A stretch of DNA of 64,000 nucleotides from an uncultured bacterium (GTDB lineage Bacteria > Verrucomicrobiota > Verrucomicrobiia > Limisphaerales > UBA8199): assembly GCA_963749495.1 (NCBI GenBank), contig CAVVMW010000023.1, positions 768,001 through 832,000 of the forward strand. The letters run 5' to 3'. The position numbers and the translations under genes were made by a program. The stretch's first letter is position 1; the number at the start of each line of letters is the position of its first letter. The notes beneath the pieces were generated by a model. That model was not told the origin of the DNA and did not search any database. It was given only the letters and a program-made list of their open reading frames with translations. Below are positions 9,004 through 37,142 of this stretch, piece after piece.

Positions 9004-9027
9004 GGTGCGGTGCGAGCGGCCTCGGCT

Positions 9028-9861
9028 CTAGAGGTGGCAGACTAGGCAGCCCGCCGGATCGCTGGAAAAGACGTCCATGAGGGAGCTGTCGCATTTCGGT
9101 TTGTGGGTGGATTGCTGTCGGCGCTCATATTCGTCTTTGATCTGAGCGATTCGCTCTGGTTTGGCGAGCTCGGCGAGGCTCTCCCCCTGTACCCAGGTGT
9201 ACGAAATCCCTGTGACCGCATCTGTTTTCTCATACTCCATCGCTTTTTTAAAAAGGTCGGGGTGCTTCTCTAACAGTCCGACCCATTCGCGCCGTTGCTG
9301 GTAAAAGCAGAAGTAACACCCCGAGCGAGACCGCCACTCGTAATAGGAGGGAAGGCCGAGCTTTCTGTGCATTTTGAGAATGTGAAGTACGTCGGCGTGT
9401 TTGATCCCGTCTTCAATAAAGGGAAAACGGGCGGTTATGTTGGGTTTTGTGGAAATGTAGCCCTTGCGGTGTGGCTCGTCAGCCCGAATGCCAATGTAGC
9501 TTATGACGGGGTCATCGCCGACGTATTGTTCAAACGGTTTGATCTTAAGAGGCTCCGTACACCAGCGGACTTGCGGCGAAGGAAGATAGCCTTTTCTTCT
9601 TTCGAGAAGGTCGTCAAAATTGTACCCTTCAGCCTTTAGATGGACTATGGGCTTATTAAGAAAGACCTGAAGCTTCTTTAAGTAGTCATAAGTTTCGTCA
9701 AGCTCTTTGTCTGTGTCGCAGAAGACGTACTCCAATTCGGGAAGTTTGTCTCTCATGTAAAGGGCGAGAGCAGTGCTGTCCTTTCCTCCTGAAAGCGACA
9801 ATATATGCCTGGGAGGTTTGGCATCTGGTGCTGGTGCGTTCGGCGTTTGGGGTGCGCTCAT
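9028..9861 (-). CDS. sspD: PAPS reductase-family protein, SspD-like (277 aa)
   Basis: SLSGGKDS, RWCTEPLKIKP, GIRADE, RSRSGCYFCFYQ and terminal CLVCHL. ATG at 9861 lies just after the ATPase stop. Confidence 0.8.
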   Translation of the reverse strand: MSAPQTPNAPAPDAKPPRHILSLSGGKDSTALALYMRDKLPELEYVFCDTDKELDETYDYLKKLQVFLNKPIVHLKAEGYNFDDLLERRKGYLPSPQVRWCTEPLKIKPFEQYVGDDPVISYIGIRADEPHRKGYISTKPNITARFPFIEDGIKHADVLHILKMHRKLGLPSYYEWRSRSGCYFCFYQQRREWVGLLEKHPDLFKKAMEYEKTDAVTGISYTWVQGESLAELAKPERIAQIKDEYERRQQSTHKPKCDSSLMDVFSSDPAGCLVCHL

Positions 9862-12800: not shown

Positions 12801-13186
12801 GAGCAGATGGCCAAGGTTTCTGGCGGCAGATTGGAACTGACGCCCCGGTGCTAGAGAAACAGCGGCGGAGGTACCTTGGAGAATGCAGACGGACGTGGCG
12901 GCCCGGCGGGCAGTGATCAAGATGGGGAAAAAGCCCTTCCTTGATTCTTCGAACGCCTTTACTCCGAGCAACCGGCTAGCGAGGGCGGGGTCCACGCCTT
13001 GAAGTTGATGGCGTGCGGTAGTAGTGGATTCACCGGTGGGGCAGAACAGGCGAGTCAGGAAAACAGCGAAGGCGGATTTTCCGACACCGTAAGGGCCGGT
13101 GATGGTCCAGGCTCGATAAGGGGAATTGTCGCGGAGACCTTCAGCCACCCGATTGAGGACCTGGCGGGCGGTGGGAGTGACGATGT

Positions 13187-15371
13187 CACGGCTTCGGCGG
13201 ATCATTGCGTAAGTTGTTGCTGATCAATTGGATATAACGTGGGACTGGACAAAGCCCCCCGAGGCTGCCAAACTCGGCGGCATGATTTGTCCTGCACAGA
13301 TAAAACGGACCTCCAAACCTGAGGACCTCGTCACCCAAATCCTCCGAGAGACCACCGATAAGACGATCACCGTCGAGTTGGTCAAGAGCCTTGAGGAGGA
13401 AGCTCGGTGGAACAAACTGATCCGAAAACACCATTACCTCAAAGAGCATCGCATGGTCGGCGAGTCGCTTCGCTATGTGATCAAGAAAAAGGGGCGATGG
13501 ATCGGCCTGTTGGGTTGGTCCAGCGCCGCCTTCCATCTGCGGCCCCGCGATGCCTGGATCGGCTGGACCGACGCTCAGCGACAGGCCGGACGCCACCTGC
13601 TGGCCTGCAACGCTCGCTTCGCGCTGCTTAGGCCCAAAGGCCGCTCGCCCAACCTGGCTTCCCACTGCCTGAGCCTCAACCTCCAGCGCCTCAGTGCCGA
13701 CTGGCTGGAACACTACGGCCACCCCATCGCCTTGGTCGAAACCTATGTGGACCCCAAACGGTTCGAAGGCACCTGTTATCGTGCCGCCAATTGGTTTGAA
13801 ATCGGCGTGACCAAAGGCTGGGGACGCTCCCGCCTGGATTTCTATCAACTCCACCAGCAGCCCAAAGCCATCTTCGTGTATCCGCTGGTCCGCAACGCCC
13901 GCCAGATCCTCTCGGCTCCGCTCATGCCGGCAGCTTGGGCGCCCTATCGCCGAGAGCCCCCGCCTCAGGAATATCCTTTGAGCGGAAAACAAACCCAAAG
14001 CTTGCTCCACGCCCTGGCCCCACTCCACGACCCCCGCCGCTACCGGGGTTGGCGCCATCGCCGCGTCGCCTCCATTGTGGCCATTGCTGCCGCCGCGATG
14101 ATTGCGGGCAACAACTCCCTGATCGATATCGGCGAGTTCTCCCAGTCCCTCAACCAAAACCAACTCCGCAGCCTGCGCGCCTGCCGTTGCCGCAAGACCC
14201 GCAAGTTCATCCCTCCCAGCGAAACGACCATCCGCCGAATCCTCCAGCGCCTGGACCCGACAGAATTGGACAGGCTGATCAACGATTGGCTGCGCTCCCA
14301 CCTCAAGAACGCGGGCATCGCCGCACTGGCCGTCGATGGCAAATGTGCCCGCACCGCCACCAAAATCAACGGACAAGGCATCCAACTCTTCGGCGCCCTG
14401 GACACCCAAACCCAACTCTTTTGCCGCCAAATCCAAATCCCGGCCAAGACCAATGAAATACCCACCCTCAAGGACCTGCTCCGGGACTTGGACCTGCGCG
14501 GCACCTTGGTCAGCGCCGACGCGCTCAATACTCAGACCGCCACCGCCGACCATGTGGTCGAGGAAAAAAAGGCCGACTACCTCCTGGTCGTCAAAGCCAA
14601 TCAACCCAAGCTCTTCGACAAACTGGCCCGCCTGTCTCACGCGCCGAAAGGCGTTTTTTCCCCCTGAGCACATCACGATTGACCAAGGCCATGGACGGCA
14701 TGAAACCCGCGAGGTCTGGCCCTTTGAAGTCACACCCCAACAGTGCGGCTTCCCACACGCCCTCCAAGCCGCCGTCATCGTGCGCACTACTCACCATCTC
14801 AAAGCCGTTCGCGTTACCGAAGAGGCCGAACTGGTCTTGAGCAGCCGCCCCAATGCGCAGATGGATGCGGCGCAATTGCAGGCCTTTCGCCGTGGCCATT
14901 GGAGCATCGAGTCGGTCCACTACGTGCGCGATGTCACTTTCGGCGAAGATGCTTGCACCGTCCGCACCGGCCACGGCCCGCAAAACCTGGGTGCCTTGCG
15001 CAACCTGGTCATCGGCCTCTGTGCCCTGGATGCTGCCCGCCAGCACAAAGCCACCTCCTATCTGCCACGCTTTCGCTGTGCCGCCAGGAACAATCGCCGC
15101 TTGGCCATCGACCTGGTCGGTCGTCCTCTGCTCAATAACACCTGATGGGGTGCTCCCCTGAGTCTGAGCATCGGTTCGGCTCTGATCGGTCTGGTCTCTC
15201 TGCATGCCGGACGTTTCTATGGCTTCCCACATTGCTGCCCGGATCTGAGCAAATCCTTCCTATAACAGCCTGGCAATTGACAGTGCGCGAGCCGTTGTGG
15301 CGACAAGATCCTCGCCTGCGCTCACGCCCCGATTCCACCCGACAAGGGCCGTTCTAAACGCCGAAGCCGTG
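13187..15371 (+). mobile_element. ISAs1-family insertion sequence, 2185 bp
   Basis: Perfect 13-bp IRs CACGGCTTCGGCG (13187-13199) and CGCCGAAGCCGTG (15359-15371). 10-bp TSD GTGACGATGT at 13177-13186 and 15372-15381. Confidence 0.95.
13228..15145 (+). CDS. DUF4338 + ISAs1 DDE transposase, in two frames joined at GTTTTTTCCCCCTGA (~14653-14667)
   Basis: HHYL, NARF, ETYVD and GTCYRAANW (DUF4338). DPR, AVDGK, KTNEIP, ADALNTQ, VKANQP, GHGRHETR and HWSIE..HYVRDVTFGED (ISAs1). Confidence 0.9.
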
Positions 15372-15498
15372 GTGACGATGTAGTCGCCATTTCGTTGGCC
15401 GCCAGCGTAGTCCTTTTCGAGATTGACCGATCGCAGAAAGCGGGCGCGGACCTGAACACAATCAGAGAGGGTTTGGCAGGGGGCTGGTTTCATCGGGC

Positions 15499-16425
15499 CT
15501 ACGTTCGGTAGTGGCTTTCGAGAAGCCGCATGGAGTCGAGTTTTTGGCGCCGATAGATCTGCTTGAGCCCGGCCGTTTCGTCAAGCGCGATAACGCCTCC
15601 GGTCATGTCCTCGATGGCCTCGATGTACTCAACGAGGCTGTTTTCATCCAGCTTGAAGGCTTGCCCGGGGCTTTCGATGCCGTATAAGCACTCCTGAACG
15701 CTCATGGGATTGCGCTCGGACTTGCTTCTGGCGAAATACTCGTCCAGCGCAACGACAAAAACGGCGGCAGGGAGTGACGGTTTGGGGCCAATGGCAAAGC
15801 GGAAAAACTCGCCGTCCGGGGATGCCTGCATGAGGCCGAGTTCCTGGAGTGGACAATCAAAGGTCTCTTCGGCGACTTCAGGACGAGTCCCATTGCGCAC
15901 CGGCAGATACGTTCTGAGGAGGCAATCAATGTCGCGGGCGAGCGACGATTCGCGGACTCGGATCGAGTGCTTTTCGGCAAACGACTTCACGAAATCAACC
16001 AGTTCGCGCTTTGAAAAATCAGGCCGGTGGAAGTGGCCAAAAGCCAGTTGCCAGCTCGTGCCAATGGTCGGATTAGAGACCAGCAGCCAATGAACGAGCC
16101 ACAGCGAAGCGTCGTTCTCCAGGAACGGGTCCCATCCTCCCTTCAACAAGAGCCGTTTTGCGAGGGTGGAGGGTTGAAAGACGCGCTTAGTGGCGTCTTC
16201 GGGGGCGGGTTTCTCCTCGAGCATCTGGGTCGCCAAACACCAATGGCGGATGCTCTCAACCATATTCTTGCCCACGCCCAAATGAACAATGGCGTCCTCG
16301 GCCGAGAAGATGTCCGGGGATTCAGCGGCTGACTTCACACCTTTCTCGATCCAGCCGTAGCGGAAGGCGAACGTCTGGTGGCCTGAGAACTTCATCTTTT
16401 TTGCAGCTCCGGACATCTCGGACAT
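15499..16425 (-). CDS. sspB: DUF4007 family protein, SspB-like
   Basis: FSGHQTFAFRYGWIEKG, LGVGKNMVESIRHW, WDPFLE...LWLVHW, CPLQELGL, SPGQAFKL and ETAGLKQ. First gene of the operon. Confidence 0.9.
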   Translation of the reverse strand: MSEMSGAAKKMKFSGHQTFAFRYGWIEKGVKSAAESPDIFSAEDAIVHLGVGKNMVESIRHWCLATQMLEEKPAPEDATKRVFQPSTLAKRLLLKGGWDPFLENDASLWLVHWLLVSNPTIGTSWQLAFGHFHRPDFSKRELVDFVKSFAEKHSIRVRESSLARDIDCLLRTYLPVRNGTRPEVAEETFDCPLQELGLMQASPDGEFFRFAIGPKPSLPAAVFVVALDEYFARSKSERNPMSVQECLYGIESPGQAFKLDENSLVEYIEAIEDMTGGVIALDETAGLKQIYRRQKLDSMRLLESHYRT

Positions 16426-21091: not shown

Positions 21092-22528
21092 TCAGGTCCG
21101 ACACGGCAACACCGCCCGATCTCCCCGCGCGAGAATTGATTTCGATGAACTGCTACAGTGCAGGCATGTCGCACTGGCTTTGCAATCAGCCGACATCCAA
21201 CGGCGCTCGCGGCAGAAATGCATGCTGTAACCTCTTCGCGCGGACTTGCTGAACAGACCGGAGTAGCCGAGAAGAAAATCGTTCGCCGCCTGCGCTGCGG
21301 CAACAGCGTTCAGCGTTATGACGCTGGGCGCAAACACCAGTTCATCGTCCACGTACGCTTGTCGTTGGCGTTCCCGCTCCGTGAACGCTTCTTGTTGCAG
21401 CTTGGCGGCAGAGATAAGCCCGTTGCAAAGCAGACAGCCGCCGCCGGCATGAGGCAACACGGGTCGCGAAACCGCGAAGATTTCACCGATTTCGCCGGTT
21501 TCCTTGTCAACGGGAACCTTCGAACCGACTTGGACGCCCGGGATTTGGTACTGATGCACAAGGGCGTTGAAGACCAATCGAGCTTGTGCAGAGTCGGCGC
21601 AAAGAAAAATGAAATCGGCGTCTTTGAGCAACAACGCAGCGTCGCGTCGCGTGACGTCGTCAACCACCGCACGATAACGGATTCTCGGATTTGCGCGTTT
21701 TGCAACACGCTCTGCGACCTTCACCTTGAACCTCGCCAAGCGGCGGCCCAACCTTTGCATCCCACTCCAGTTCATCATCGAGAGGAACACCCGGGCGTCG
21801 CACGGCCGCGAGCCGACGACGCGCGGTTGGTTGCTCGGATCGAGTTTGTCAAAGTCAATTCCGACAATTTTGCCGATTCCCAGGTGCGCCAGCCATTCGT
21901 TCAGGAGCGAGCCGGCGCCGCCGAGTCCGATGATGCCCACCTTTGCTCGCTTCAGGATTTCCTGACCTCCCGCTCCAAAAATCAGGGACTGGCGGTGATA
22001 AAGTGGAATGGCCGCGATGGGTGACTTCTGTGGTGACGGGTAAAGCCGGCGGATGTTTTGTCCGATGACAACGAGGTTTTCGAGCGGGAACACACCCTCC
22101 ACAGTCCAGATGCTTCCCGCGACGGCTTTACGCGCAAACACGAGCGCGCCGACCGGGCCCCCTCTGGTAATATCCAGCAGCGCCGGGTAGCCGCGACGGT
22201 GCGACTTCACGTCGGCCGTGGAAAAACCCACGAAATCATCTCCCTCGTGACAATGCACGGCGAGGTAGCACAAGTTCTCTTGCGCGCAATGATGCGAAAC
22301 ACGGGCGACGAAATCGGCCGTGAGCGCCCGATAGCCATACTTTCCCGGCACGTAATCAATGCCGTCTTTCGCAACGAAAACCTCGCGGGCAAGCAAGCGC
22401 GCTTCGCGGCCTGATTCGCAAATGCCGGCGGCAATAATCGCTCCGTGCTCGTCAGCGTCGCCGGGGAACAAATGGGACATGAGTTGCTCGAAGAGCGTCT
22501 CCGAAATTCTGAACGTAAATTTCTTCAT
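21092..22528 (-). CDS. JAB peptidase-ThiF/E1 fusion (478 aa)
   Basis: N-terminal EHG...VHCHEG..FSTAD (JAB). GLGGAGS, DFDKLDPSNQPRV, CADS..AR, CLLC and CLHC (ThiF). ATG overlaps the E2 stop. Confidence 0.9.
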   Translation of the reverse strand: MKKFTFRISETLFEQLMSHLFPGDADEHGAIIAAGICESGREARLLAREVFVAKDGIDYVPGKYGYRALTADFVARVSHHCAQENLCYLAVHCHEGDDFVGFSTADVKSHRRGYPALLDITRGGPVGALVFARKAVAGSIWTVEGVFPLENLVVIGQNIRRLYPSPQKSPIAAIPLYHRQSLIFGAGGQEILKRAKVGIIGLGGAGSLLNEWLAHLGIGKIVGIDFDKLDPSNQPRVVGSRPCDARVFLSMMNWSGMQRLGRRLARFKVKVAERVAKRANPRIRYRAVVDDVTRRDAALLLKDADFIFLCADSAQARLVFNALVHQYQIPGVQVGSKVPVDKETGEIGEIFAVSRPVLPHAGGGCLLCNGLISAAKLQQEAFTERERQRQAYVDDELVFAPSVITLNAVAAAQAANDFLLGYSGLFSKSARRGYSMHFCRERRWMSADCKASATCLHCSSSSKSILARGDRAVLPCRT

Positions 22529-22920
22529 TGGCCTCTTATCCAATCCAACACTTTTGCCAGCTTGAGAGCGGCGGTGTCCGTTTCCGGATTCAAACGATTC
22601 GAGCGGCGTGACAGCATGATTGCCGGTTCGGTCGCCTTCGGCGTTCGCCACTGGTTGTTCAGGTTGAACCCGCCGCCGAGCGAACGTCCGTCCTTTCGTT
22701 TCAATGCCGGAATGCAGAAATGCGGATAAATGTCCGCGAACGGATATTGAAACGTGATTGGGAACGCGAGCCACGACACAGACGGCTCGTACTTATCGCC
22801 AAGGATCAGGTCGTGAACCTTGACGTAGGCACCGCCGTCTGTGTCCGGGTCAACGTCCATCTGGCGACGGGGAAATGCGACTCGGATTTCCGCGATCGCT
22901 TGTTGAACCGCGGCTGTCAC
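22525..22920 (-). CDS. E2/UBC-like protein of a bacterial ubiquitin system
   Basis: ITFQYPFADIYPHF and LSRRSNR. Lies between the multi-Ubl and JAB-E1 genes; GTG start at 22920. Confidence 0.7.
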   Translation of the reverse strand: MTAAVQQAIAEIRVAFPRRQMDVDPDTDGGAYVKVHDLILGDKYEPSVSWLAFPITFQYPFADIYPHFCIPALKRKDGRSLGGGFNLNNQWRTPKATEPAIMLSRRSNRLNPETDTAALKLAKVLDWIRGQ

Positions 22921-22922
22921 GG

Positions 22923-23663
22923 CTAGGAGTTGTCGTCGGGCGTGACACAACGGAATTCCTCGCAGTCCCTGAGCGTGACTTTTTCGGAGTCGCCGATGGA
23001 TGCGCCCAGGGTGCCGTCCGGCTTCACTTTGTAGAGAACGCCATCAAGGGTGATTTTTACCTGCTGCGCGATGGCGGTCTGCTTGATTTCGAGACCAGTG
23101 ACCCGCCGTTTGTGGAATGTCACCGGATAATTGTTCACCTTCACCGTGATGGTGACGCGCTCCGTGCGAAACACTGGGCCGTCGGCGAAGTTGGCCGCCT
23201 CGTCATCCGCGATTGGCTCGTCGTGCGGCAACTCGTAGTCACGCAGCAACTCGACTTGCGCTGAAAGCTCGAACAGCCGGCGCAAGGTCGCACCAGTCTG
23301 GCGGGGATCAAGAGTGATTTCCCATTCATCGTCCACCACGAATGCACATTTCGCCGGTTCATGGCATGGCGGTGGCGGCGCGGCTTCGCAGAGCGGGATC
23401 ACTCGGAAGACATTTCCCGCTGCCAGATCGATCTCGGCCTCCTCCGCGACGACCACGTCATTGCGGGATTGATAATCGCGCACCAGCACGAAGCCCGCAC
23501 CGATGCCGGCCTGGTCTTTGATGGTCTGGGCGGTCACGACCCGTCGAGGCATTGAAATCGCCCGATCGTTGACGAGAACCGCCCACTTTGGCGCGGGGCG
23601 GCAATCAGGCGCTTCCTTCGCCAGGGCTTTCTCCTGGCCCATTTGAATTTCCGAATCAGTCAT
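22923..23663 (-). CDS. Multi-ubiquitin domain protein (about three beta-grasp repeats)
   Basis: Repeats VND...VTAQTIK..AG..LVRD; VDD...TGATLRRL..LLRD; VNN...VTGLEIK..A. Ends FRCVTPDDNS. Confidence 0.8.
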   Translation of the reverse strand: MTDSEIQMGQEKALAKEAPDCRPAPKWAVLVNDRAISMPRRVVTAQTIKDQAGIGAGFVLVRDYQSRNDVVVAEEAEIDLAAGNVFRVIPLCEAAPPPPCHEPAKCAFVVDDEWEITLDPRQTGATLRRLFELSAQVELLRDYELPHDEPIADDEAANFADGPVFRTERVTITVKVNNYPVTFHKRRVTGLEIKQTAIAQQVKITLDGVLYKVKPDGTLGASIGDSEKVTLRDCEEFRCVTPDDNS

Positions 23664-23849
23664 AATCATAACTTCGATTTTCTTTGTGTTCTGGACGCCG
23701 CCGAAGTTGTTCATCCGTCTGCGGCGAGCCGTTCCAATAGGGATTGCTGAAAACGCGGCCGACCGTGGGGCAAAGAATTTGCCGTTCTGCGAAAGATTTT
23801 CCCCCAAAGGCCAAGACTTGTTAGCCTGTTACGTGTGAATGGACCAACT

Positions 23850-24437
23850 ATGGACGACAACGCAATGAGCAAGCTGGGTGCGGTGGACTGGGACGATGCC
23901 GCGCCCCGGCTGCTTCAGTTTGCGCGCCGGTGGGCCGCTGGCCTTTACTATTGGTGCGAAGGCACCGCGCTGCCCAACGGGATGGGCATCGAGGACGTCG
24001 TCAAGGATGCCGTGGCGGCGTTCGCGCGCGGTGAACGAAAGTTCAATCCGCGTTTCGAGGTCATGGTCCAGTTGAAGGGCGCAATCCGCAGCATCCTGTG
24101 GAACATCCACAAGCGGAAAGCCGCGGGGTTGACGAGTTCGGAAGCGCCAGCGTTCTTCGAGGCGCAATTGGATGCGGCGCTCGACCCGGCAGCGAAGGCT
24201 GAAAGTGAAGATTTTTGCCGGACGTTGCTGGAAAGCCTCGCGGGCAACCAGCAGGTCCAGGACAGGCCGGAGTTGCTGGCCGTTGTGAAAGCGTATGCAG
24301 GCGGCGCCGAGTCCGTCGAAGAGTTGGTCGAACAAACCGGCCTGCCGGTGCGCCGCATCTACGAACTGCGCCGGCAGATGAGGGAGATCGCCGCTAAGGT
24401 CTTGGGAAGATTGAGCAGAAAGGGAAAAGCGTTATGA
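23850..24437 (+). CDS. ECF/sigma-70-like transcription factor
   Basis: DWD..PRLL.FA, EDVVKDA...GERKF..., IRSILWN (region 2-like) and C-terminal HTH ELVEQTGLPVRRIY. Confidence 0.7.
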   Translation: MDDNAMSKLGAVDWDDAAPRLLQFARRWAAGLYYWCEGTALPNGMGIEDVVKDAVAAFARGERKFNPRFEVMVQLKGAIRSILWNIHKRKAAGLTSSEAPAFFEAQLDAALDPAAKAESEDFCRTLLESLAGNQQVQDRPELLAVVKAYAGGAESVEELVEQTGLPVRRIYELRRQMREIAAKVLGRLSRKGKAL

Positions 24438-24805
24438 GCAAGAGCTATCAGAATGCCGTTGAGCACCTGCATCTGTTTCTGGCCGACACGGAGGGCGAGA
24501 GCCGTGACGAGGTTACGCGTGGATTGCGCGCGGCGGGAGTGGATGTCAACCGATTTATTTCCGACATCAAACGGATTGCCGGGGTGCGAAGCGGGTTTTC
24601 CCGTGTGGGACGGTTCGCAAACAAGACGCGCGCGCAGATTCTGAAGCTGCTCGAAGAATTGCAGCTTGAAACTTCGGGGGCGTTTTCAAACGTCGGCCTG
24701 GCGGCCCGGGAAGGCGGCGGATTGAATCAGTTGTCCGATGAGCAACTTCGAACGTTGCTGGAAAAACTGGAGGCGGAGCGGTCGCACGACGAGTTGAAGG
24801 ACTAA
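24434..24805 (+). CDS. Small partner of the sigma-like factor (anti-sigma candidate), 123 aa
   Basis: ATGA overlap with the sigma-like gene. Helical, ending AAR...LSDEQLRTLLE. Confidence 0.55.
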   Translation: MSKSYQNAVEHLHLFLADTEGESRDEVTRGLRAAGVDVNRFISDIKRIAGVRSGFSRVGRFANKTRAQILKLLEELQLETSGAFSNVGLAAREGGGLNQLSDEQLRTLLEKLEAERSHDELKD

Positions 24806-24835
24806 AGGGAGGTCTCTCGTCGCAAGCACAACAAA

Positions 24836-25831
24836 ATGACTGCCTGGAAGCCCAAACGAAATGGTTGGAACGGGCCAACCTGGTCCGTCAGCCGCAACCA
24901 ACAGCTCCAGACGTGCGAGCGCAAATACTATTTCCAGTATCTCGCTGGCGCACGGGTCAACGCCACCGAACCAATGCAACGGCGGCTCGGGATGCTGAAA
25001 AAGCTCAAAAGCATCCGCATGTGGGAAGGCGACTGTGTGCATTGGGCCGTCGCCCGTTTTCTCGGAGCGGTTCGAGACAAACGCAGTTTGAGCGCCGAAC
25101 AGGCACTGGCTCAGCTGCGGGATAAGATGGAACGTGAGTGGCAATTCTCGGAGCGGAGGTGTTTCCGGACGCAGCCGCTGCTCATTGACAAGGGCGGCTT
25201 GGGTCTGGTGGAGCACGAATACGATAGCGTGCCGGCGGGCGTTACTGCCGACAGTGTGTACGACGATGTCGCGAGTGGATTCCACAAATTCGTCGCGTGG
25301 GCGGACGGCATCTGCGCGAGAATTCGAGTTGCTGACAACGTTTGGATTGAGCCGCCCGTGTTTGGCCCGGAAGCGCCGGGCTTCCCTCTGGACGGCGTTC
25401 AAATCATCGGGAAGGTGGACCTTGCCATCGAGAAGAGCGGTGAGTTCTTTGAGATTTACGACTGGAAGACCGGCGGAGCACCGGTTCAGAAGAGATCCTG
25501 CATCACGCAAAACGAACTCCAGGTTTGCGTGTACCAATTGTGGCCGCATCTCTCGATGCGACTGCCGCTTAGTCTCGTGTCGAGCCAGTTGGTTTATCTG
25601 GGCGGTGAAACGCCGGAAGCCCGCACGCATCGTCTGGATGAAAACTCAGTGCCCCTCGTTGTTCAAATGGTGCGGAACAGCGTCGCGTTGGCAACCCGTT
25701 GGGAAAAGAATTTCGAGAAGGGCCTGTTGCGGCTGAACGATTTGGATTACGCCGCCTGGCCCGGCGCTTGTCGCGAGTGCGCGTTCAAAGCGGTCTGCCG
25801 TGAAAGTTTGCATTATGAAAACGTCGCCTAA
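24836..25831 (+). CDS. Cas4/RecB-like PD-(D/E)XK nuclease with four Cys (probable Fe-S cluster)
   Basis: TCERKYYF, G..VH, GKVDL, IYDWKTG, Q..VY and CRECAFKAVC. Confidence 0.9.
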   Translation: MTAWKPKRNGWNGPTWSVSRNQQLQTCERKYYFQYLAGARVNATEPMQRRLGMLKKLKSIRMWEGDCVHWAVARFLGAVRDKRSLSAEQALAQLRDKMEREWQFSERRCFRTQPLLIDKGGLGLVEHEYDSVPAGVTADSVYDDVASGFHKFVAWADGICARIRVADNVWIEPPVFGPEAPGFPLDGVQIIGKVDLAIEKSGEFFEIYDWKTGGAPVQKRSCITQNELQVCVYQLWPHLSMRLPLSLVSSQLVYLGGETPEARTHRLDENSVPLVVQMVRNSVALATRWEKNFEKGLLRLNDLDYAAWPGACRECAFKAVCRESLHYENVA

Positions 25832-28214
25832 CCGAAAGCTGCTGGCGGCGTCTCTGTTTGCCATCAGCGGGCTGCAGGGACTGCCGTTCAAGTTGCGTGT
25901 GCTGCGCGTCGTCAATGCGCTGCCGAATGACAATTATCGTCCCATTCGCCTGCAGGGATGGGCCGACAACCTCTGGCATGACGTGCTGAAGTGCCCGGTG
26001 TTTCCGACATCGCGCTTTGACTTTCCGGGGTTCATCGTTCCGGCCGACGCGGCCGCGGAAGTCGGTCAGGTGATTTCCTTGCCTGGTGTAGCAGATAAAG
26101 AGTTCCGCATCGAGGTCACTGATCGCGTTTTGGAAATCGATCCGAAACAGGCGCGGCCGGAGGAGCGCGACTTGGCGGGCAAGATGATTGAGCGCGTCAT
26201 CAGCGACCGTCTCAGCTCGCTCAAGTCGAAATTCTGGCGGACTGAATGGACGCTTTATTTCCACCTGCTTCCCGAGAACGAGCGGGAAGCACGTGACCGC
26301 GTCAACGCCTATCGCGGGTTCAAATTCGGCGTCGTGTTGCTGGAAACCGGCGAGCTTCTGTTGGCCGGCGACATTCGCACGAAATACATCGGGCGTCGCT
26401 CGCTTGCTCAATACGATCAGGTGGAGCGCGAACTCGTATTGGCTCGGCATCTGGACCTCGAAGTTGACATCGAAGACCGCGCCACGTTTGTGCGTGACAA
26501 CGGCTCGGCGAAATATTCGTGCCGCTACGCCGGGCCGACGGGACAATCCATCAGCGAGTATCGCATCAAAGAATTGAACCAGACTGTGCTGGACTTCTAC
26601 GTCAAGAACTATCCCCGACTCCGCCTCGATCCGAATGATGCGGCTGTATTCTTCGACAGCGGCGGGAAGAAGAAAGACATGGCTGCGCCGGCGTCACGAA
26701 TGTTTCCGGTGTTTACCACCGAGGATGAGAGTTTGCGCGAGTGCTCGATCAAACCCCAGATGACCCCCGAAGCGCGAGTTCAGGAAATCCATTCGTTCCT
26801 GGGCGAGCTCGCGGGATTGAATTACGCGGGACGGGACCTCAGCATCGATCGCGAACTCGTTACGCGCGAGCGCAGCATTTTTCTTCCGCCGAAACTTGAA
26901 TACGGCAAGGGCAACATTCTTGCACCGTATCCGCAGAACGGCAGGGCCGGCGCTGTATTACCCGATCTTGAAAAAGCGATTGCCGACTGGCGATTCAGCA
27001 AAATGCCAATGCTTTATCGGCACGGGCCGTATTTCAATGAGCCGCTGCCGGACGTGGTGTTCTTCTACCCTGATGGATTGCCTCGCGATATACGCGAAAG
27101 ATTTCTGGAGCAACTCGACCTGGAAATCCTCAAACAGACCGGATCGAAGATGAACGTCATCGCGCGCCGCTCGTACCGAATCGGACAAGCCGAGCGGAGC
27201 GGCGCGTCGCTGCTCGCAACCATCAAAACAGTTATTGGCGAACAGCCCGGAATGTTCCTGGCACTCGTCGCTCTGTGGGATCGTTTCCTTGACAGCGTGC
27301 ATCCGAATTTGAAGGACGCGGTGAAAGGCCGCCCTTCGCAATGTGTCACCGAGCGGGTGCTGCGGACGATTGCGAATACTACCGACCCGATGCGCGCCAC
27401 AGGGCGCGTCCGAAACCTCGCGCTTGGCGTTTTGATTGCCGCAGGCGTGCAACCCTGGGTCTTGTCGGAAGAACTGCACCACGACGTTTACATCGGCATC
27501 AACACTCTGCATGGCCGGGTCAGTTATCATTTTCTTTTCGGCAAGGGTGGTCGCCAGGTTTTGACCTCGCTCGGAGCGTCCATTAAGCGGGGACGAACAC
27601 AAGAGTCGCTGGACAAAGTGGAACTTCGGACAAGAATCGAGTCCACTGTTCGCGAGATTCATCAGGCCGGCCATCCGCTTCGCAGCGTGGTCGTCCATCG
27701 CGACGGACGCTGGTGGAAGCGTGAAAGTCAGGCGCTCAACGAAGCGGCCTCGAATTTGGTTCGCGACAAGATTCTGGCAAAGGATTGCGCCATCGGGGTG
27801 GTCGAAATCCGCAAGAGCCATTTTCCCGTCCGGCTGTTCACGAAAGTTGGGCCGCCGGCAAATCAGCTGCTGAATCCGCTTCCCGGCACTCACTTGGTGC
27901 TCGATCAGCAACGCGCTTTGCTTTCGACGACGGGCAGACCCGGCGCATGGGACAAGAGCGAAGGGCGAACCGCGGGAACGCTTCTGCTGAATCTCATCGA
28001 GAGTTCCCCGCCGATGGACATCGAGGCTTTGGCGGAAGACGCTTACCGGCTCACGCATCTAAATTGGAGTGCGCCCGAGATTGAAATTTCCGTCCCGGTC
28101 ACGATTCGGTGGAACGACGATGCGCTGCGGGCTTCGCTCGTTAGCCAGCAGCAGGAGGAAGATGAAACTTACGACGAGACGAACGAACTTAAGATGGAAG
28201 GAGCGAACGTATGA
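25815..28214 (+). CDS. Long prokaryotic Argonaute (799 aa), catalytic tetrad apparently incomplete
   Basis: MID motifs HPNLK and PSQCV. PIWI motifs G..PW.L, YIGIN, VVHRDG, VEIRKS, YRLTHLNW and PVTI. N-terminal YRGF and PAZ-like TVLDFY. Confidence 0.9.
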   Translation: MKTSPNRKLLAASLFAISGLQGLPFKLRVLRVVNALPNDNYRPIRLQGWADNLWHDVLKCPVFPTSRFDFPGFIVPADAAAEVGQVISLPGVADKEFRIEVTDRVLEIDPKQARPEERDLAGKMIERVISDRLSSLKSKFWRTEWTLYFHLLPENEREARDRVNAYRGFKFGVVLLETGELLLAGDIRTKYIGRRSLAQYDQVERELVLARHLDLEVDIEDRATFVRDNGSAKYSCRYAGPTGQSISEYRIKELNQTVLDFYVKNYPRLRLDPNDAAVFFDSGGKKKDMAAPASRMFPVFTTEDESLRECSIKPQMTPEARVQEIHSFLGELAGLNYAGRDLSIDRELVTRERSIFLPPKLEYGKGNILAPYPQNGRAGAVLPDLEKAIADWRFSKMPMLYRHGPYFNEPLPDVVFFYPDGLPRDIRERFLEQLDLEILKQTGSKMNVIARRSYRIGQAERSGASLLATIKTVIGEQPGMFLALVALWDRFLDSVHPNLKDAVKGRPSQCVTERVLRTIANTTDPMRATGRVRNLALGVLIAAGVQPWVLSEELHHDVYIGINTLHGRVSYHFLFGKGGRQVLTSLGASIKRGRTQESLDKVELRTRIESTVREIHQAGHPLRSVVVHRDGRWWKRESQALNEAASNLVRDKILAKDCAIGVVEIRKSHFPVRLFTKVGPPANQLLNPLPGTHLVLDQQRALLSTTGRPGAWDKSEGRTAGTLLLNLIESSPPMDIEALAEDAYRLTHLNWSAPEIEISVPVTIRWNDDALRASLVSQQQEEDETYDETNELKMEGANV

Positions 28215-28621
28215 GTCTATTGGGATTCATGTCCGTCAAGTTGGACAAGCAGCAAACGTTGCTGGAACGGCTCAACGAGGCGCTGCTCATGGTTCAAAGC
28301 GAATCGCTGGGCCGGGCCGCCGACCTCGGCTTCACGTCGGCGCAAATTGCCGCGGCGAAGGAAACGCTGCGCGAGTTCGTCAATCGCTTGCGGACAAAAC
28401 TGGCGGGCAACCAGGACAACGAAGAATTGAACGTCCTGGTGGCGCGAATTCGCGAAGGCCAGTTCGAGCTGAATGAATGGCTGGAGGAATTAGCGCAACT
28501 CGAAACGCAGTTGGCGCAACCCGGGCTGCTGCCGCTGACGGCCATTCCCACGCTGGAAGGAGTTTTGGCGATACTGGATGAAGAACTGACTGCCGAATTC
28601 AACCGGCTTTATTCGCGATAA
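28211..28621 (+). CDS. Alpha-helical hypothetical protein (136 aa)
   Basis: ATGA overlap with the pAgo gene, GGAG RBS upstream, Leu/Glu-rich amphipathic helices. Confidence 0.75.
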   Translation: MSLLGFMSVKLDKQQTLLERLNEALLMVQSESLGRAADLGFTSAQIAAAKETLREFVNRLRTKLAGNQDNEELNVLVARIREGQFELNEWLEELAQLETQLAQPGLLPLTAIPTLEGVLAILDEELTAEFNRLYSR

Positions 28622-28636
28622 GCACAAGGATGGGGC

Positions 28637-29788
28637 ATGCCTTCATACCGGATCGCCAAGACGGCGGAATTGGATATACTCTTCGATTGGCTGGAGGATC
28701 AACTCCGCCAGCTGCGGCAGACCAATCCTGACCATCGCGTCGTCCTTGATTATCTCGACCAGCAATACACCCAGGCCGAGAACAAGCTTGCGCTCCTCCA
28801 GGCTTTGCTGGCGCTCAAAGACCCGAACCTCGACAAACGCGCCGACAGGCTGGCTCACGACTTGTCTCGCCACGTTATTCCGACGGCGAACCACTATATC
28901 GCGGGTCTGCAGCGGCAAGGCCCGCAGGACCGGCGAGTAAGGCAGGTGCTGCTGCGTCTGTGCCAGCGGCTCCGGTTGGATTGGATTGAAGACATCCTGG
29001 TCTGCTTGCTGCGGGATTTGGCATTGCTGGCTGAATACCGCGGAATCTTCGCCATCCCGGTGTTCTACGGCCCGCCGCATCTGCTGGAGACAATTCTCGA
29101 AGTCCCCGGAATTTATCACGAATTCGGTCATAGCGTCTTCGCGAGGGATGACGTGTTCCTTCGCGAAATGTCCTCAATCGTGAAGCGCCATTTCGTCCAA
29201 CTGAAACAACAGGCCGGCCCGATTCCACCGGTGCAGAAGGCGCTCCGCGACCAGGAACTCGACCGTGCCGCCAACTCCTGGAGTGCGCTGTGGTTGGCCG
29301 AGGTTTTCGGCGACCTCTTCGCGGGATATGTTTGCGGGCCGGCCAATCTGGCTTCGATGGTGGACCTGGGCCGCGCTCAAGGTTTTCCTCCCTACCTGCT
29401 CGCCTCAAACTCACACCCGCCAAACTGCGCTCGCGTCCTGGTTTCCTATTTCGCCCTCTCCGACCAGCAACGTCAGCATCCAACCGTGCAAAAAATCCAC
29501 GACGCATGGCAGCATTTTGCCCGGGGATTTACACCCGGCCAGGATTATAAGTTGCGTTGTGCTGAGGATCTCTTGAGGTCGGTGGCCAACGCGGTCAATG
29601 CCCTCATCGCGCAACACCTGCCAAATATTCCTCGGTACACAAAGATGCCTCCTGATCTGGCATCGGCGCGGGCTGTGAAAGCCGGTATCGCCCTTGAAGA
29701 CCTTATCAATGCCGGGGTGACGATTCTCTTTGAAGCGCCGGCTGAATTTTCTGCCTGGCAGCAATCCTCTCGCCTGCTGATCGCGTGA
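28637..29788 (+). CDS. HEXXH zincin-like metallopeptidase-fold protein (383 aa)
   Basis: IYHEFGHS, downstream WLAEVFGDLFA..CGPA and SHPP..AR. Confidence 0.75.
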   Translation: MPSYRIAKTAELDILFDWLEDQLRQLRQTNPDHRVVLDYLDQQYTQAENKLALLQALLALKDPNLDKRADRLAHDLSRHVIPTANHYIAGLQRQGPQDRRVRQVLLRLCQRLRLDWIEDILVCLLRDLALLAEYRGIFAIPVFYGPPHLLETILEVPGIYHEFGHSVFARDDVFLREMSSIVKRHFVQLKQQAGPIPPVQKALRDQELDRAANSWSALWLAEVFGDLFAGYVCGPANLASMVDLGRAQGFPPYLLASNSHPPNCARVLVSYFALSDQQRQHPTVQKIHDAWQHFARGFTPGQDYKLRCAEDLLRSVANAVNALIAQHLPNIPRYTKMPPDLASARAVKAGIALEDLINAGVTILFEAPAEFSAWQQSSRLLIA

Positions 29789-31482: not shown

Positions 31483-33239
31483 ATGCGTTCAAGCCCTGTC
31501 CGAGTTCCTCGCGGCCATCCGCGAGGGCGCACCCGAGGCCCAGGGTCTCAACGGACCGCTGACCGCTTATTAGCGACGCCGCTGCCGCACCTGCACCCGG
31601 CGGTTCCCGGCCGTTTGAAAGTGCGCGAGCACGAATACTCGGCGGCGCTCGTGTACTCCCACCTGACCCAATTGGGCTGGGTGCAGTCCTTGCCCAAAGA
31701 CAGCATCTTGGCTGGGGCCGCGCGATGCCTCACTGGGCGAGTAGCCCGGTATCGGCAGCGGCGGCTCCCGCTGGAGTTTTGCCTCGCCACCAATCTCCAG
31801 CATCTGCCACTCGGCGGGGAGGCCGGCGACGCCGCCATTGTGGTGAGCGTACCCGACACGCAACTGATCGAGTTGCAGCAGCCAATCCAACGTTTGGAGA
31901 AGAAGCACCCGCAGGCGGGTCGTTTCGTTTGGAGCGCGTTGCATCGCGGGTTGGGCTCCTGGGGGAGTACTGTTCGCCTCAGTGCCTGCTTTATCTTCTG
32001 TCGATGTATTACTGGCAGGGCGAAGAGAATGAGGAGCAAGCTCTAAAAGATCTCAAGGCGCAGGGAGAGGACATCTCCCAAGTCGAAATGATCCGGCGGG
32101 CCGACGTTGAGCGGCAATTCCCGAAATGGGTAATCGGCTTGGAAAAGGAACCGGCCAAACCGCCCGCCCGGTTGCGCCAACTGCCCTTCCACGGGGCGGT
32201 AACGAGGCTGACCGCCTTTCGACGCGATCAGTTCCCGGAGAATTGGATCGAGAGCCGCAGCCTCCCCATCGTTTACATCCCCTGGGAAGGCACGGTCTTG
32301 GCCCAGGCGACAGACGAGCACTTCGAGGCGCTCAATCAGGAATACGAAACCGCCCAGTGGGTGTTCCGGTTCAACCCGCGCTCCCTGGAATCGTTCGAGC
32401 TGGCCTGGACACAATTCGAACTTTACCTCGAGGTTCTCCATGCAGTGGAAGACGTGCTTGACGGTCTGCTGGGCGCTGCCGAACCCCGCCCGGTGACCAT
32501 CGGCGTCCCCAAGGAGGAGCCCAGCGAACTGTCCGCAACGCACGCGTTGCTCCTTTACAGCGGCGGGAGCAACAGTAGCAGGGCCATTGTGACCACGCAC
32601 TCCATCGCCAGGGCACCCGGACGTTACGTGCTCCTACCCGGAAAACCGGCCAGCGCCGCAGCCTTGTTCCAGTTGCTGGCCCGGTTCAATCCCAATATTG
32701 CGTACCAGGGGATTCTGCCTGAAAACCTGCTGCGGCACACGCCCGCTGAACTGTTGTGGCACTGCCCGAGCCGGATCGAGCCAATCTTTTTCAAAACAAA
32801 CCAGGAGGAACTCAACGCCATCAGCGGCGCCCGCGTGGTCCACCCGCACCTGGCGTTTTATGTAAATCAAGGCAGCCTCTTTGTTGCCGCCCTGCCGGAC
32901 GACCAGCGCCCGAGCCTGCAAACAAAGCTCTTCCGCGCGCCCTATTTCAACGTCAGCCCGGAAGGCAGAGTATGCCAGGGAAGCATGAAAGGCCCGCGCG
33001 AAAACCGGCCCGAGAGTCTGCCCCAGTGGGAGCACGCCTTTTTTCACTCGGCCTTCACGCATCCCCATGGGGGCGCCTATCGCATCACGTCACACCCAGA
33101 CGGTCATGCGGCGCTCTGGCTGGCGCAGGCAAAGAAGCCGTATCCGAAATTCCCGATCCAGCACCTGGTGCCACTCGAGATGACCTTGGGCGATTGGTTA
33201 AAAGACTGTGCCGAATTCAAGTCTGGTTGGCGCCCGTGA
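31483..33239 (+). CDS. PRTRC protein F running into protein B (E2 family D); frameshift near 31960
   Basis: F-like LEKKHP and YYWQGE.NEE. B-like LPENLL, HPHLAF, LFRAPYFNV..EGRVCQG and WE.AFF.SAFTHP. Confidence 0.75.
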
Positions 33240-34024
33240 GCAGTTTCGTCCACAAACTCCCGGCCCAATGGCATTCGCGCGCCGTGCATATCAACGTCGC
33301 CGGCTGCGGTGGAAGCGGCTGCCATCTGCTCATGGGGTTGGCGCAGCTCCAGAAAGCTCTACGGGGGTTGGGGCATCCGGGCCTGGAAGTCACAGCGTTC
33401 GATCCGGACACCGTTTCCGAGGCCAACCTCGGCCGCCAATTGTTCACCGAGGCGGATATTGGCCAGAACAAAGCCCTCACCCTGATTCACCGGCTGAACA
33501 TCGCCTTTGGCCTGGATTGGTCTGCCATCCCGCTGGAATACCGGCCATACCAAAGAACCCCGGACCTGCTCATCTCGGGCGTGGATTCCAAACAGGCCCG
33601 CGCCAGCATCTATGAGCGGATCCGGGACGGTCGGGCGGACTACTGGATGGATCTCGGCAACGGGGCCGATTACGGCCAGGTCGTGCTCGGCCAGGTCGGC
33701 CCATCGAAGAAACGTTTGGCCAATGTCGCCGAGCTGTACCCGGAGATGCTGGAAGGGTACGAAAACGACGAGCCGTCCTGTAGCCTCACCGAAGCGCTCA
33801 ACCACCAGGAGCTGTTCGTCAACCGCGCGCTCACGGCCTTCGCGCTTCATTTGGTCTGGACGATGTTCCGGCGAGGCGAAATCCGGGTAGCGGGCTGCTT
33901 CCTCAACCTCAAAGAAATGACGACCGTTCCGCTACCGCTGAAGCGACCAAAACCACCAGGCAGGCATAGAGCCGGAGGCGAGCGTCTAAACCAGGGGTGC
34001 AAGGTCCCCATTCGACGGGATTGA
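33236..34024 (+). CDS. PRTRC system ThiF-family (E1-like) protein
   Basis: GCGGSG, DPDTVSEANLGRQ, YWMDLGN..GQVVLG and PSCSL.EAL..QELFVN. Confidence 0.9.
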   Translation: MSSFVHKLPAQWHSRAVHINVAGCGGSGCHLLMGLAQLQKALRGLGHPGLEVTAFDPDTVSEANLGRQLFTEADIGQNKALTLIHRLNIAFGLDWSAIPLEYRPYQRTPDLLISGVDSKQARASIYERIRDGRADYWMDLGNGADYGQVVLGQVGPSKKRLANVAELYPEMLEGYENDEPSCSLTEALNHQELFVNRALTAFALHLVWTMFRRGEIRVAGCFLNLKEMTTVPLPLKRPKPPGRHRAGGERLNQGCKVPIRRD

Positions 34025-36087: not shown

Positions 36088-36411
36088 TCAGTAACGGTCT
36101 CGACCACCGCCACGCCCACGACCGCCGTAACCACCACGCCCTCCGCCACCGCCCGAACGTTCCTCCTTGGGCCTGGCGATATTGACGGTGATCGCCCGGC
36201 CACCCAGGTCTTTGCCATTTAGCCCATCGATGGCCTTCTGCGCTTCCTCCGGCGTGCTCATGGTGACGAAGGCGAACCCACGAGGACGGCCGGAGGCACG
36301 ATCCATCATCAGGTTGGCTTCCTCGACCGTGCCGAACACCGCAAAGGCGTCCTGCAGGTCATTTTCAGTGGTGTTGAACGAAAGGTCCCCCACAAACAAT
36401 TTGGTACTCAT
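36088..36411 (-). CDS. RRM RNA-binding protein with Gly-rich tail
   Basis: KLFVGDLS (RNP2), RGFAFVTM (RNP1) and an RGG tail. Confidence 0.95.
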   Translation of the reverse strand: MSTKLFVGDLSFNTTENDLQDAFAVFGTVEEANLMMDRASGRPRGFAFVTMSTPEEAQKAIDGLNGKDLGGRAITVNIARPKEERSGGGGGRGGYGGRGRGGGRDRY

Positions 36412-36572
36412 CTGGTTTGTGTATTGTCCTGGACAGCTCTGCGCTGGCCACAATGTTCTCGCCCGCCGGGTCTCAAATCGTCTCTGCTGACAACGAAAAC
36501 GGCGACAGACCTGAATCCTCCGCCGGTTCGGTGAAAAGCCTGTGAATACCCTGCAAACAACCCTGCGAACAA

Positions 36573-36860
36573 CTACTTGGCGCCCAAAATCGCGTCTTTG
36601 GCGGCCTTGGCAACCCGGAACTTGACCACGCGCTTTGCCGGGATCTGGATCTGCTCCCCGGTGGCTGGATTTCTCCCCATCCGGGCTTTGCGATTGACCA
36701 GGACCAGTTTGCCCAGTCCAGGAATCGTGAAGGAATTCTTGGCGTTTTTGTACGCAAGGGCCACAAGGGCTTCGACGGTTTGGACGGCCTGCTTTTTCGT
36801 GAGGCCGGTCGTTTCCGCTATTGACGCGGTAATTTGAGATTTGGTCAGTGCTTTTGCCAT
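36573..36860 (-). CDS. HU family DNA-binding protein
   Basis: TKSQI, IPGLGK and RKARMGRNPATGEQIQIPAKRVVKF. Confidence 0.95.
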   Translation of the reverse strand: MAKALTKSQITASIAETTGLTKKQAVQTVEALVALAYKNAKNSFTIPGLGKLVLVNRKARMGRNPATGEQIQIPAKRVVKFRVAKAAKDAILGAK

Positions 36861-37142
36861 AGGGCGGAATGAAAGAGGGAAAGGGTGGGCGGGGCAAGCC
36901 GAAATGGATCAGGAAAGCACCAACGAGAAGAGGTGCAGGGAGGGAGAAAACGAACGGTTCAATAAGGCTCAATTGCGATAATGCACTGCCAAAAGAAGAA
37001 TTCCGGTTTTATGGATCTGATGCTGCCATTTGATACTCGGAGGCCCAAAACGGGTCTTTTCAGGGGCTCAGCAGGGCCAGACCTCAAACTGGTGAACATG
37101 CGAAGGAGGCCGGTAAATGCGAGCGGATCCTCGCTTGTCCCC

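Follow-up and report, generated by a model that had tools for sequence, protein, structure and literature searches.

The 64,000-nucleotide stretch of contig CAVVMW010000023.1 analysed here (the window) carries on its forward strand an operon in which the gene for a long prokaryotic Argonaute (pAgo) of the VbAgo family is preceded by the gene for a Cas4-family nuclease and followed by genes for a small helical protein and for a predicted zincin-like protein. These four genes behave as a self-contained cassette that recurs in related loci and on plasmids; in the window the cassette is headed by a putative sigma-like gene pair and lies beside genes that resemble the ubiquitin-like Bub system. We regard the system as a variant of a known pAgo operon type that has, in addition, two components present in every relative examined and a tie to Bub, none of which we found described. 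The operon comprises the following six open reading frames (ORFs), with positions counted in the window.

23850..24437, + strand: g1, 195 amino acids (200 from an alternative GTG start at 23835), a divergent protein that is possibly sigma-70/ECF-like
24434..24805, + strand: g2, 123 amino acids, partner of g1, matching no family
24836..25831, + strand: g3, 331 amino acids, Cas4-family PD-(D/E)XK nuclease
25815..28214, + strand: g4, long pAgo of the VbAgo family, 799 amino acids from ATG or 804 from GTG 25800
28211..28621, + strand: g5, helical protein of 136 amino acids, matching no family
28637..29788, + strand: g6, 383 amino acids, predicted N-terminal three-helix coiled coil and zincin-like domain

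An earlier note on this DNA, made from its letters and ORFs, had described six co-oriented genes that overlap or are closely spaced, and all six ORFs are present at the coordinates that it gave. The ATGA start/stop overlaps between g1 and g2 at 24434 and between the pAgo gene and g5 at 28211 can be read directly in the sequence, as can the stretch that the nuclease and pAgo genes share (25815-25831, from the pAgo ATG at 25815 to the nuclease stop codon at 25829-25831). From g1 to g6 the intergenic gaps are -4, 30, -32 (taking the pAgo from its GTG), -4 and 15 nt.

The note had also asked whether the Cas4-like, 136-amino-acid and HEXXH genes are conserved neighbours of homologous pAgos, and they are. 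We assembled 82 related loci, two from species genomes and 80 from metagenomes, whose pAgos are 36%-92% identical to that of the window, and sought the neighbours with hidden Markov models (HMMs) built from the first tblastn matches, using as denominators the loci with enough flanking DNA. A Cas4-like nuclease gene lies upstream of the pAgo gene in 49 of 49 loci, g5 is present in all 70 loci whose downstream DNA is 600 bp or longer, and g6 is present in 55/55, rearranged orders included. The last two genes are adjacent in every layout, whether downstream on the same strand (60 loci), convergent (nine) or upstream of the nuclease gene (two). As these neighbours are conserved across related loci, the arrangement goes beyond chance. 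The loci that lack g1 have flanks that are unrelated to one another, with restriction-modification genes, transposases, other defence genes or housekeeping genes, and in one locus, L041, the four genes stand alone between lipid and amino-acid biosynthesis genes; it is for these reasons that the nuclease, the pAgo, g5 and g6 are taken as a self-contained four-gene cassette. Its distribution is sporadic, the pAgo and g6 each being found only in the window's own genome among 401 sampled genomes of the phylum.

A tblastn search of 72,556 plasmids with g6 and its plasmid homologs returned five records, and a pAgo gene lies beside the g6 homolog in all five. Their gene orders, in which HTH denotes a helix-turn-helix protein, are as follows.

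Runella slithyformis pRUNSL03: HTH, PD-(D/E)XK nuclease, RslAgo (WP_013921749.1), 125 amino acids, 378 amino acids, multiubiquitin, DUF6791-ThiF, DUF6527, all on one strand
Rhizobium sp. L51/94: HTH, nuclease, Piwi protein, 118 amino acids, 412 amino acids
Spirosoma oryzicola: DUF6527, ThiF and multiubiquitin, divergent from sigma-70, 181 amino acids, nuclease, pAgo, 132 amino acids, 387 amino acids, the same layout as in the window
Aphanizomenonaceae plasmid: nuclease, pAgo, 145 amino acids, 381 amino acids
Emticicia oligotrophica: sigma-70, 180 amino acids, 295 amino acids, pAgo of 829 amino acids, 128 amino acids, 382 amino acids

The four plasmid g6 homologs that were compared, those of Runella, Rhizobium, Spirosoma and the Aphanizomenonaceae plasmid, match the g6 HMM at E values of 1e-26 to 1e-32, and in each of them HExxH falls within residues 152-160. 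When the g6 profile was run against 1.84 billion representatives, it recovered 74 relatives at E <= 1e-30 and 436 at E <= 1e-10, the weaker tier scoring like the plasmid homologs. Two deep-branching loci, L078 (2986-3402) and L082 (3042-3425), have the order HTH, g5, g6, nuclease, pAgo, and their HTH proteins are 36-39% identical to the HTH protein of the Runella operon.

The Argonaute itself is readily placed. It matches the PADLOC model pAgo_II (1.3e-56) and, across residues 12-793, the VbAgo structure 9v65 in the Protein Data Bank (PDB; E 7.8e-207), and a profile of 31 g4 homologs aligns with the VbAgo structure over the whole length at E 4.5e-289. Less close in the PDB are PliAgo (7r8f and related entries) and one other protein with a Piwi domain. 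At 37 C, VbAgo uses DNA guides to cleave RNA; its tetrad is D550/E584/D617/D756, and its D550A/D617A mutant is inactive (PMC10448046, PMC13219720). Mapped from VbAgo and numbered in the 804-residue frame that begins at GTG 25800, the tetrad of the window pAgo is N568, E602, D635 and D773, an incomplete DEDD. The first position is Asp in all 30 other sequences of the alignment. Across 68 pAgos, made up of the window copy, 63 from metagenome loci and four plasmid genes, with the fragmented L002 omitted, 66 have DEDD, the window copy has NEDD and L075 has DQDD. Codon 568 (27501-27503) reads AAC in the window, GAC in L017 and L001, and GAT in L004; N568 is unique among the 68 relatives, and one G-to-A step separates it from GAC. 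Either a genuine inactivating variant or a mistake in the assembly could account for D568N; the window pAgo probably slices weakly or not at all, and would still be able to bind targets.

Because 66 of the 68 relatives have DEDD and active PIWI domains are restricted to long-A pAgos in the survey of Ryazansky (PMC6299218), we assign the family, on its sequence features, to the active long-A type, with predicted DNA-guided targeting of RNA. The term 'non-catalytic' that was first applied to this pAgo therefore suits at most the window copy, in which Asn replaces the first catalytic Asp, and not its family, and the accompanying picture of an inactive long pAgo paired with nuclease, SIR2 or membrane effectors is not supported. 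Long-B pAgos are all catalytically inactive (PMC6299218), and in their effector systems (BPAN-like) the PIWI domain is inactive family-wide, in contrast to the DEDD family described here. The window pAgo ends in an acidic C-terminal tail. A few related pAgo frames are interrupted (five stops in L080, five in L081, one in L048, and fragmentation in L002) and may be decayed copies or products of error-prone assemblies.

The description of g3 as Cas4-like was borne out by matches to PF12705 (4.1e-25) and to the PADLOC model Aga_Cas4-like_Nuc (6.8e-23). At least 43 of 44 homologs conserve D195, D209-W-K211, Q229 and Y233, and likewise the Cas4-type cysteines C27 and C312/C315/C321, one N-terminal and three C-terminal. 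These D-DxK, QxxxY and four-Cys motifs suggest that the enzyme is competent as a nuclease. A PDB search with g3 returned AdnAB-type nuclease domains only (E 0.09-0.14), with no match at E <= 1 to the solved chains of ACE1, a Cas4-family pAgo partner. An apparent fusion of nuclease and pAgo in L049 was ruled out by a stop codon between the two genes.

The two downstream genes are the unfamiliar part of the cassette. Scans of Pfam, PADLOC and NCBIfam gave no family match for g2, g5 or g6, and Atlas scores for g5 do not exceed 0.77; comparison of g5 with the N-terminus of g6 (2.7%) and with g2 (4.9%) revealed no similarity. The HEXXH protein of the earlier note is indeed one: g6 carries HEFGH at residues 161-165, and H161, E162, H165, E222 and D226 are invariant in 43/43 homologs, with E222 as the likely third zinc ligand. 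AlphaFold2 (AF2) models, one of full-length g6 (pLDDT 95.5) and one of the domain at residues 108-383 (pLDDT 95.6), show a coiled coil (approximately residues 1-95) in front of an alpha/beta domain. PDB profile matches of g6 were discarded as coiled-coil noise, and a fold search with the whole protein was dominated by the N-terminal helical bundle. When the domain model was searched with VIA-align, the list was headed almost entirely by zinc metallopeptidases, all at modest Z values below 8: BepA (Z 6.1, 129 aligned residues, root-mean-square deviation 4.0), ZMPSTE24 (Z 6.0), the M13 enzymes Zmp1, PepO, neprilysin and ECE-1 (Z 5.5-5.9), 3c37 (Z 5.2) and Ste24p (Z 5.0). On the strength of this model we regard g6 as a probable zincin-like protein outside any sequence family matched. 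One locus, L033, carries a gene for a Peptidase_U49 (Lit-like) protein (6557-7459, - strand; 3.8e-24) that directly adjoins the pAgo core and is unrelated to g6 by hhalign.

The closest described counterparts are the operons of the D-R pAgos PliAgo, RslAgo, PnyAgo, MbpAgo and VbAgo (Lisitskaya et al. 2022, PMC9360449), which in both of their groups have a constant composition, with a PD-(D/E)XK nuclease gene before the pAgo gene and an HTH regulator or sigma-70 factor. What the window operon has in common with them is a long-A pAgo whose family tetrad is DEDD, a preceding nuclease distantly related to Cas4, and an accompanying regulator gene, here that of the possibly sigma-like g1. RslAgo (WP_013921749.1) is the very protein studied there, and its locus has the same five-gene order. 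Differences are that g5, g6 and Bub are not named in the available text of that article, figures and supplements aside, and that the window copy has the D568N change. The note had recognised no described system with these additional genes. This view needs amending for the sigma-70 factor, which is published (PMC9360449), and stands for the zincin-like and helical genes: neither of these, nor the Bub link, was found in print, figures, PDF supplements and subscription journals aside. PADLOC models match g3 and g4 in the operon and none covers g1, g2, g5 or g6, again as the note had supposed. No pAgo literature containing the word 'metalloprotease' was found, and since 2023 publications on VbAgo, PliAgo, PnyAgo, RslAgo and MbpAgo have apparently been biochemical or applied, the MbpAgo paper being without the word 'operon'.

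A second comparison concerns the nuclease. In cyanobacteria, long-A pAgos have as a partner the Cas4-family enzyme ACE1, which forms a dimer with the pAgo and processes its DNA guides; other accessory genes are left open there (PMC12094033). The APACE1/APACE2 systems resemble the window operon in that a nuclease of the Cas4 family, bearing D-DxK and four Cys, is encoded on the same strand beside a long-A pAgo, and a role in guide supply is probable here as well. APACE1 differs as a two-gene, DNA-targeting, cyanobacterial system, whereas the family of the window pAgo is predicted to target RNA and is followed by two more conserved genes (PMC12094033).

Upstream of the four-gene core, the window has the gene pair g1/g2 and a short sequence element.

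23790..23828, + strand: promoter- or operator-like element upstream of g1, consisting of GAAAGATTTTCCCCCAAAG, about 10 nt, and TTGTTAGCCT

The name sigma-like, under which g1 was first described, is tenable in a weak sense. The match to Sigma70_r2 in Pfam reaches 16 bits, under the cut-off of 24, and HTH_28 is matched at E 0.0021, while hhalign against 10 extracytoplasmic function (ECF) sigma factors of the window's own genome gives a probability of 67.7% (E 4.9e-5) over 138 columns that run from region 2 to region 4. The partner g2 always accompanies g1: of the 35 loci whose upstream DNA reaches far enough, 19 have g1, and the same 19 have g2. In a quick maximum-likelihood tree of 53 pAgos, from which L002, L048, L080 and L081 were left out for internal stops or fragmentation and in which RslAgo sits on a very long branch, the sigma-bearing pAgos are set apart from the rest by a branch whose SH-aLRT support is 100%. 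The element occurs once in the window against zero expected, and its two boxes lie 24-25 nt apart before g1 in most of the sigma-clade loci displayed; exceptions are L050, with a variant form, and L061 and L064, which with the chosen starts have box 1 only. It was not found upstream of the Spirosoma sigma gene. It may serve as a promoter or operator. A scan for sigma-70 promoters was uninformative, with two sites against 2.3 expected. In a close relative, L008, a 516-amino-acid protein with canonical Sigma70_r2 and r4 domains is encoded just downstream of g6 (3990-5540).

On the other side of the intergenic region that holds this element, the - strand carries the Bub-like genes.

22923..23672, - strand: multiubiquitin gene for a BubA-like ubiquitin-like (Ubl) protein, divergent from g1 (PF14452, 3.1e-11); the ORF is open to 23807
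22525..22950, - strand: ORF of 141 amino acids between the Ubl and E1 genes, a candidate E2
21092..22774, - strand: JAB-E1 (ThiF) fusion-like, BubCD-like protein of 560 amino acids (ThiF, 2.8e-26)

We estimate the Ubl start to lie near 23672 from where the alignments begin and from the sequence. The 560-amino-acid protein is 25% identical (E 8e-18) to the Prok-JAB+ThiF protein of L063, HxH stretch included. In related sigma-clade loci, Multi_ubiq+Prok-E2_E fusions, at the position of the 141-amino-acid ORF of the window, accompany Prok-JAB+ThiF fusions, and a Ubl-E2 fusion with JAB-ThiF is the architecture of type I Bub (6E/DUF6527) systems (PMC11601596). The 141-amino-acid ORF may encode an E2; it matches nothing in Pfam and does not resemble the Ubl-E2 fusion of L020. 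The window thus resembles Bub (6E/DUF6527) operons in its multi-beta-grasp Ubl and its JAB-E1, and departs from them in that no E2 was recognised in the window and PF20137 (DUF6527/BubE) had no match at E <= 0.01 in the window's own genome, which is 88% complete. Homologs of the Ubl gene adjoin the pAgo operon in 18 of 19 g1-bearing loci, and in L050 the Bub genes are convergent with the operon and lie downstream of it. The Multi_ubiq family is rare: it turned up in only 10 of the 401 genomes sampled from the phylum, and all 14 control genomes lack it. The Runella and Spirosoma genes (DUF6791-ThiF with DUF6527) look like another Bub type. Since the sigma-bearing pAgos map to one branch, the sigma/Bub association within the family is read from the tree as one inherited event, to which Runella and Spirosoma are additional. 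A link between Bub and Argonautes was not found in the literature searched, and the available text of PMC11601596 does not contain 'Argonaute'. In L021 the four-gene core is followed by HTH_3, Peptidase_M78 and JAB-ThiF genes (10051-13205), which resemble a regulator pair of the CapH/CapP type (PMC11601596) with a Bub-like E1.

The reading that we tentatively prefer, and to which we would assign a little less than an even chance, is that the operon is an immune-type module in which the nuclease supplies guides, the pAgo senses invader RNA, and g5 and g6 form an output arm that possibly works through the sigma-like pair. By analogy with APACE1, the nuclease would supply small DNA guides and probably bind the pAgo. 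The guide-loaded pAgo would then recognise invader transcripts, an activity shown for VbAgo; DNA-guided cleavage of RNA is likewise shown for PliAgo and RslAgo. Target-bound pAgo would switch on the zincin-like g6, which would cleave a protein substrate; candidates are g5, g2 and proteins of the host or of a phage. Where the sigma-like pair is present, cleavage might free the sigma-like factor and so alter transcription, possibly that of the Bub operon. The natural function of DNA-guided RNA-cutting Argonautes is described as open, and they are under development as RNA tools (PMC13219720, PMC9360449). If the working unit is four genes rather than one or two, as is suggested by the presence of a zinc-protease-like and a small helical gene in every relative examined, proteolysis becomes a concrete candidate output.

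The model for the last of these steps is the type III-E Craspase, in which target RNA triggers cleavage of Csx30, and Csx30 binds RpoE, a sigma factor encoded alongside it (PMC9825189). With this published parallel, the protease arm proposed in the note, directed at the helical protein or the sigma partner, stays plausible. Craspase (Cas7-11/gRAMP, Csx29, Csx30, Csx31, RpoE) and the window operon are alike in architecture only: each combines, in the window operon by prediction, a guided RNA-targeting nuclease with a protease, small proteins without family and a dedicated sigma factor. There is no homology between them; a crRNA takes the place of the DNA guide, Cas7-11 that of Argonaute and a caspase-like protease that of the zincin-like one, and protease activation in the window operon would have to be assumed. 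The complete chain, an Argonaute counterpart of Craspase in which RNA recognition by the pAgo leads g6 to cleave g5 or g2, releases the sigma factor and turns on the Bub conjugation pathway, is in our estimation unlikely as a whole. If it were true, a Craspase-like chain would join three systems whose natural roles remain open. The same recurring neighbourhood would offer a first functional context for Bub, for which no phage protection has so far been found and whose biological role is left open (PMC11601596).

Several observations weigh against the preferred reading, both in its defence setting and in its sigma/Bub extension. A defence role is deduced from family and context, and D568N may signal decay of the system in the window genome. 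The sigma link is not general: g1 and g2 are absent from 16 of 35 loci, Runella and Rhizobium have an HTH protein in place of the sigma factor, and hhalign of g1 and g2 with the Spirosoma sigma factor and its partner gives 0.2% each, so that g1 is not detectably homologous to its Spirosoma counterpart. Nor is Bub obligatory. It is missing beside the Emticicia, Rhizobium and Aphanizomenonaceae operons, tblastn found multiubiquitin in 0 of 16 non-sigma loci, JAB-ThiF lies near only one of these (L021), and among the g1-bearing loci L004 is the one with no adjoining Ubl homolog. The upstream element was found only before g1 and not before the Bub genes. For the protease assignment, the VIA-align Z values of 5-6 are modest, Foldseek returned nothing at E <= 0.001, the window g6 has no Pfam family, and among the 25 families most often matched by 43 g6 members the only peptidase family is DUF4344 (putative metallopeptidase), with one member at E 0.27. 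Membership in two peptidase families was considered on sequence and rejected: hhalign gives 0.8% against three M48 proteins of the window's own genome, with only an 'RLxExFcD' stretch aligned, and 1% against the U49 (Lit) neighbour of L033, and PF10463 (U49) has no match in the own genome or the controls.

Among the alternatives, the one that fares best leaves the core untouched and holds that Bub, and possibly the sigma-like genes too, belong to other systems that happen to lie next door, were inherited together with the Argonaute core in one clade and have no working connection with it; we consider this explanation a real possibility, if a doubtful one. It accounts for a sigma/Bub association that sits on one branch of the pAgo tree and counts as a single event, for cores that are complete without the pair or Bub in those 16 loci and on three plasmids, and for the nine other genomes of the phylum that have Multi_ubiq and no such pAgo, and the window is a defence island, with Ssp/Dnd-like genes and a second E2/E1 pair nearby. 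It does not explain so easily why a different Bub type (DUF6791-ThiF with DUF6527) adjoins very distant D-R pAgo operons, on the same strand in Runella and divergently in Spirosoma, nor why, with Multi_ubiq so rare a family, the association persists across subclades in which the pAgo is only 40-46% identical to the window pAgo.

A second alternative makes g6 a maturation protease of the pAgo, which would trim an auto-inhibitory acidic tail at the C-terminus or would act on g5, itself then a chaperone or inhibitor, and would thereby tune Argonaute activity with no downstream signal. The acidic tail of the window pAgo and the strict co-occurrence of g5 and g6 with the pAgo are what such a role would predict, but recombinant VbAgo, PliAgo and RslAgo are active alone in vitro (PMC10448046, PMC13219720, PMC9360449), and processing is therefore not required; we regard this explanation as rather unlikely. 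It is improbable, in our view, that g5 and g6 constitute a toxin-antitoxin-like or abortive-infection pair, in which the small helical protein restrains the protease and the pair has a trigger of its own and is kept with the pAgo as a stabiliser or complement. The two genes do change position and strand together, the surroundings of many loci are those of a defence island, and Atlas gives weak leads from g6 to the M48 and U49 (Lit) families (0.78-0.79). Opposed to this, g6 lies beside a pAgo gene in every one of the 55 loci and for all five plasmid homologs, with none found apart from pAgo among those five plasmid records and the loci fetched through pAgo, for which its genomic context is known; the hhalign comparison with the U49 protein points the same way, and a g6 profile scan of viral contigs found no relative. 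Least probable of all is that the module serves to regulate host or plasmid RNA, for instance by controlling transcripts or in competition between plasmids, and not as a defence against phage: RNA targeting with a dedicated transcription factor, the plasmid location of several copies and the listing of gene regulation as an open possibility by the authors of PMC9360449 fit that idea, while the sporadic occurrence (1/401 genomes of the phylum), the mobile, defence-rich neighbours and the part that the partner nuclease family takes in interference in APACE1 (PMC12094033) speak against it. As the components are easily cloned from the named Runella, Spirosoma, Emticicia, Rhizobium and Aphanizomenonaceae plasmids, both the immune-module reading and its competitors are directly testable.

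Other genes of note in the window lie on both sides of the operon. A phosphorothioation-like gene set occupies 8179-16425 on the - strand, which we take to be of the Ssp/Dnd type and which includes, besides the genes given below, two ORFs on the same strand without family (1111 and 533 amino acids). A second ubiquitin-like pair lies just downstream of the operon (31725-34024, + strand); its two ORFs overlap, and these gene calls are provisional.

5083-7824, - strand: protein of 913 amino acids with a NERD domain and two protein-kinase domains
7821-8303 and 8179-9003, - strand: Aminotran_5 cysteine desulfurase, split into two ORFs
9028-9921, - strand: PAPS_reduct
15499-16425, - strand: DUF4007
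31725-33239, + strand: Prok-E2_D
32756-34024, + strand: ThiF protein ORF
36088-36972, - strand: protein of 294 amino acids with an RNA-recognition motif (RRM_1, 1.3e-21)

The RRM_1 motif of the last of these proteins is uncommon in bacteria.

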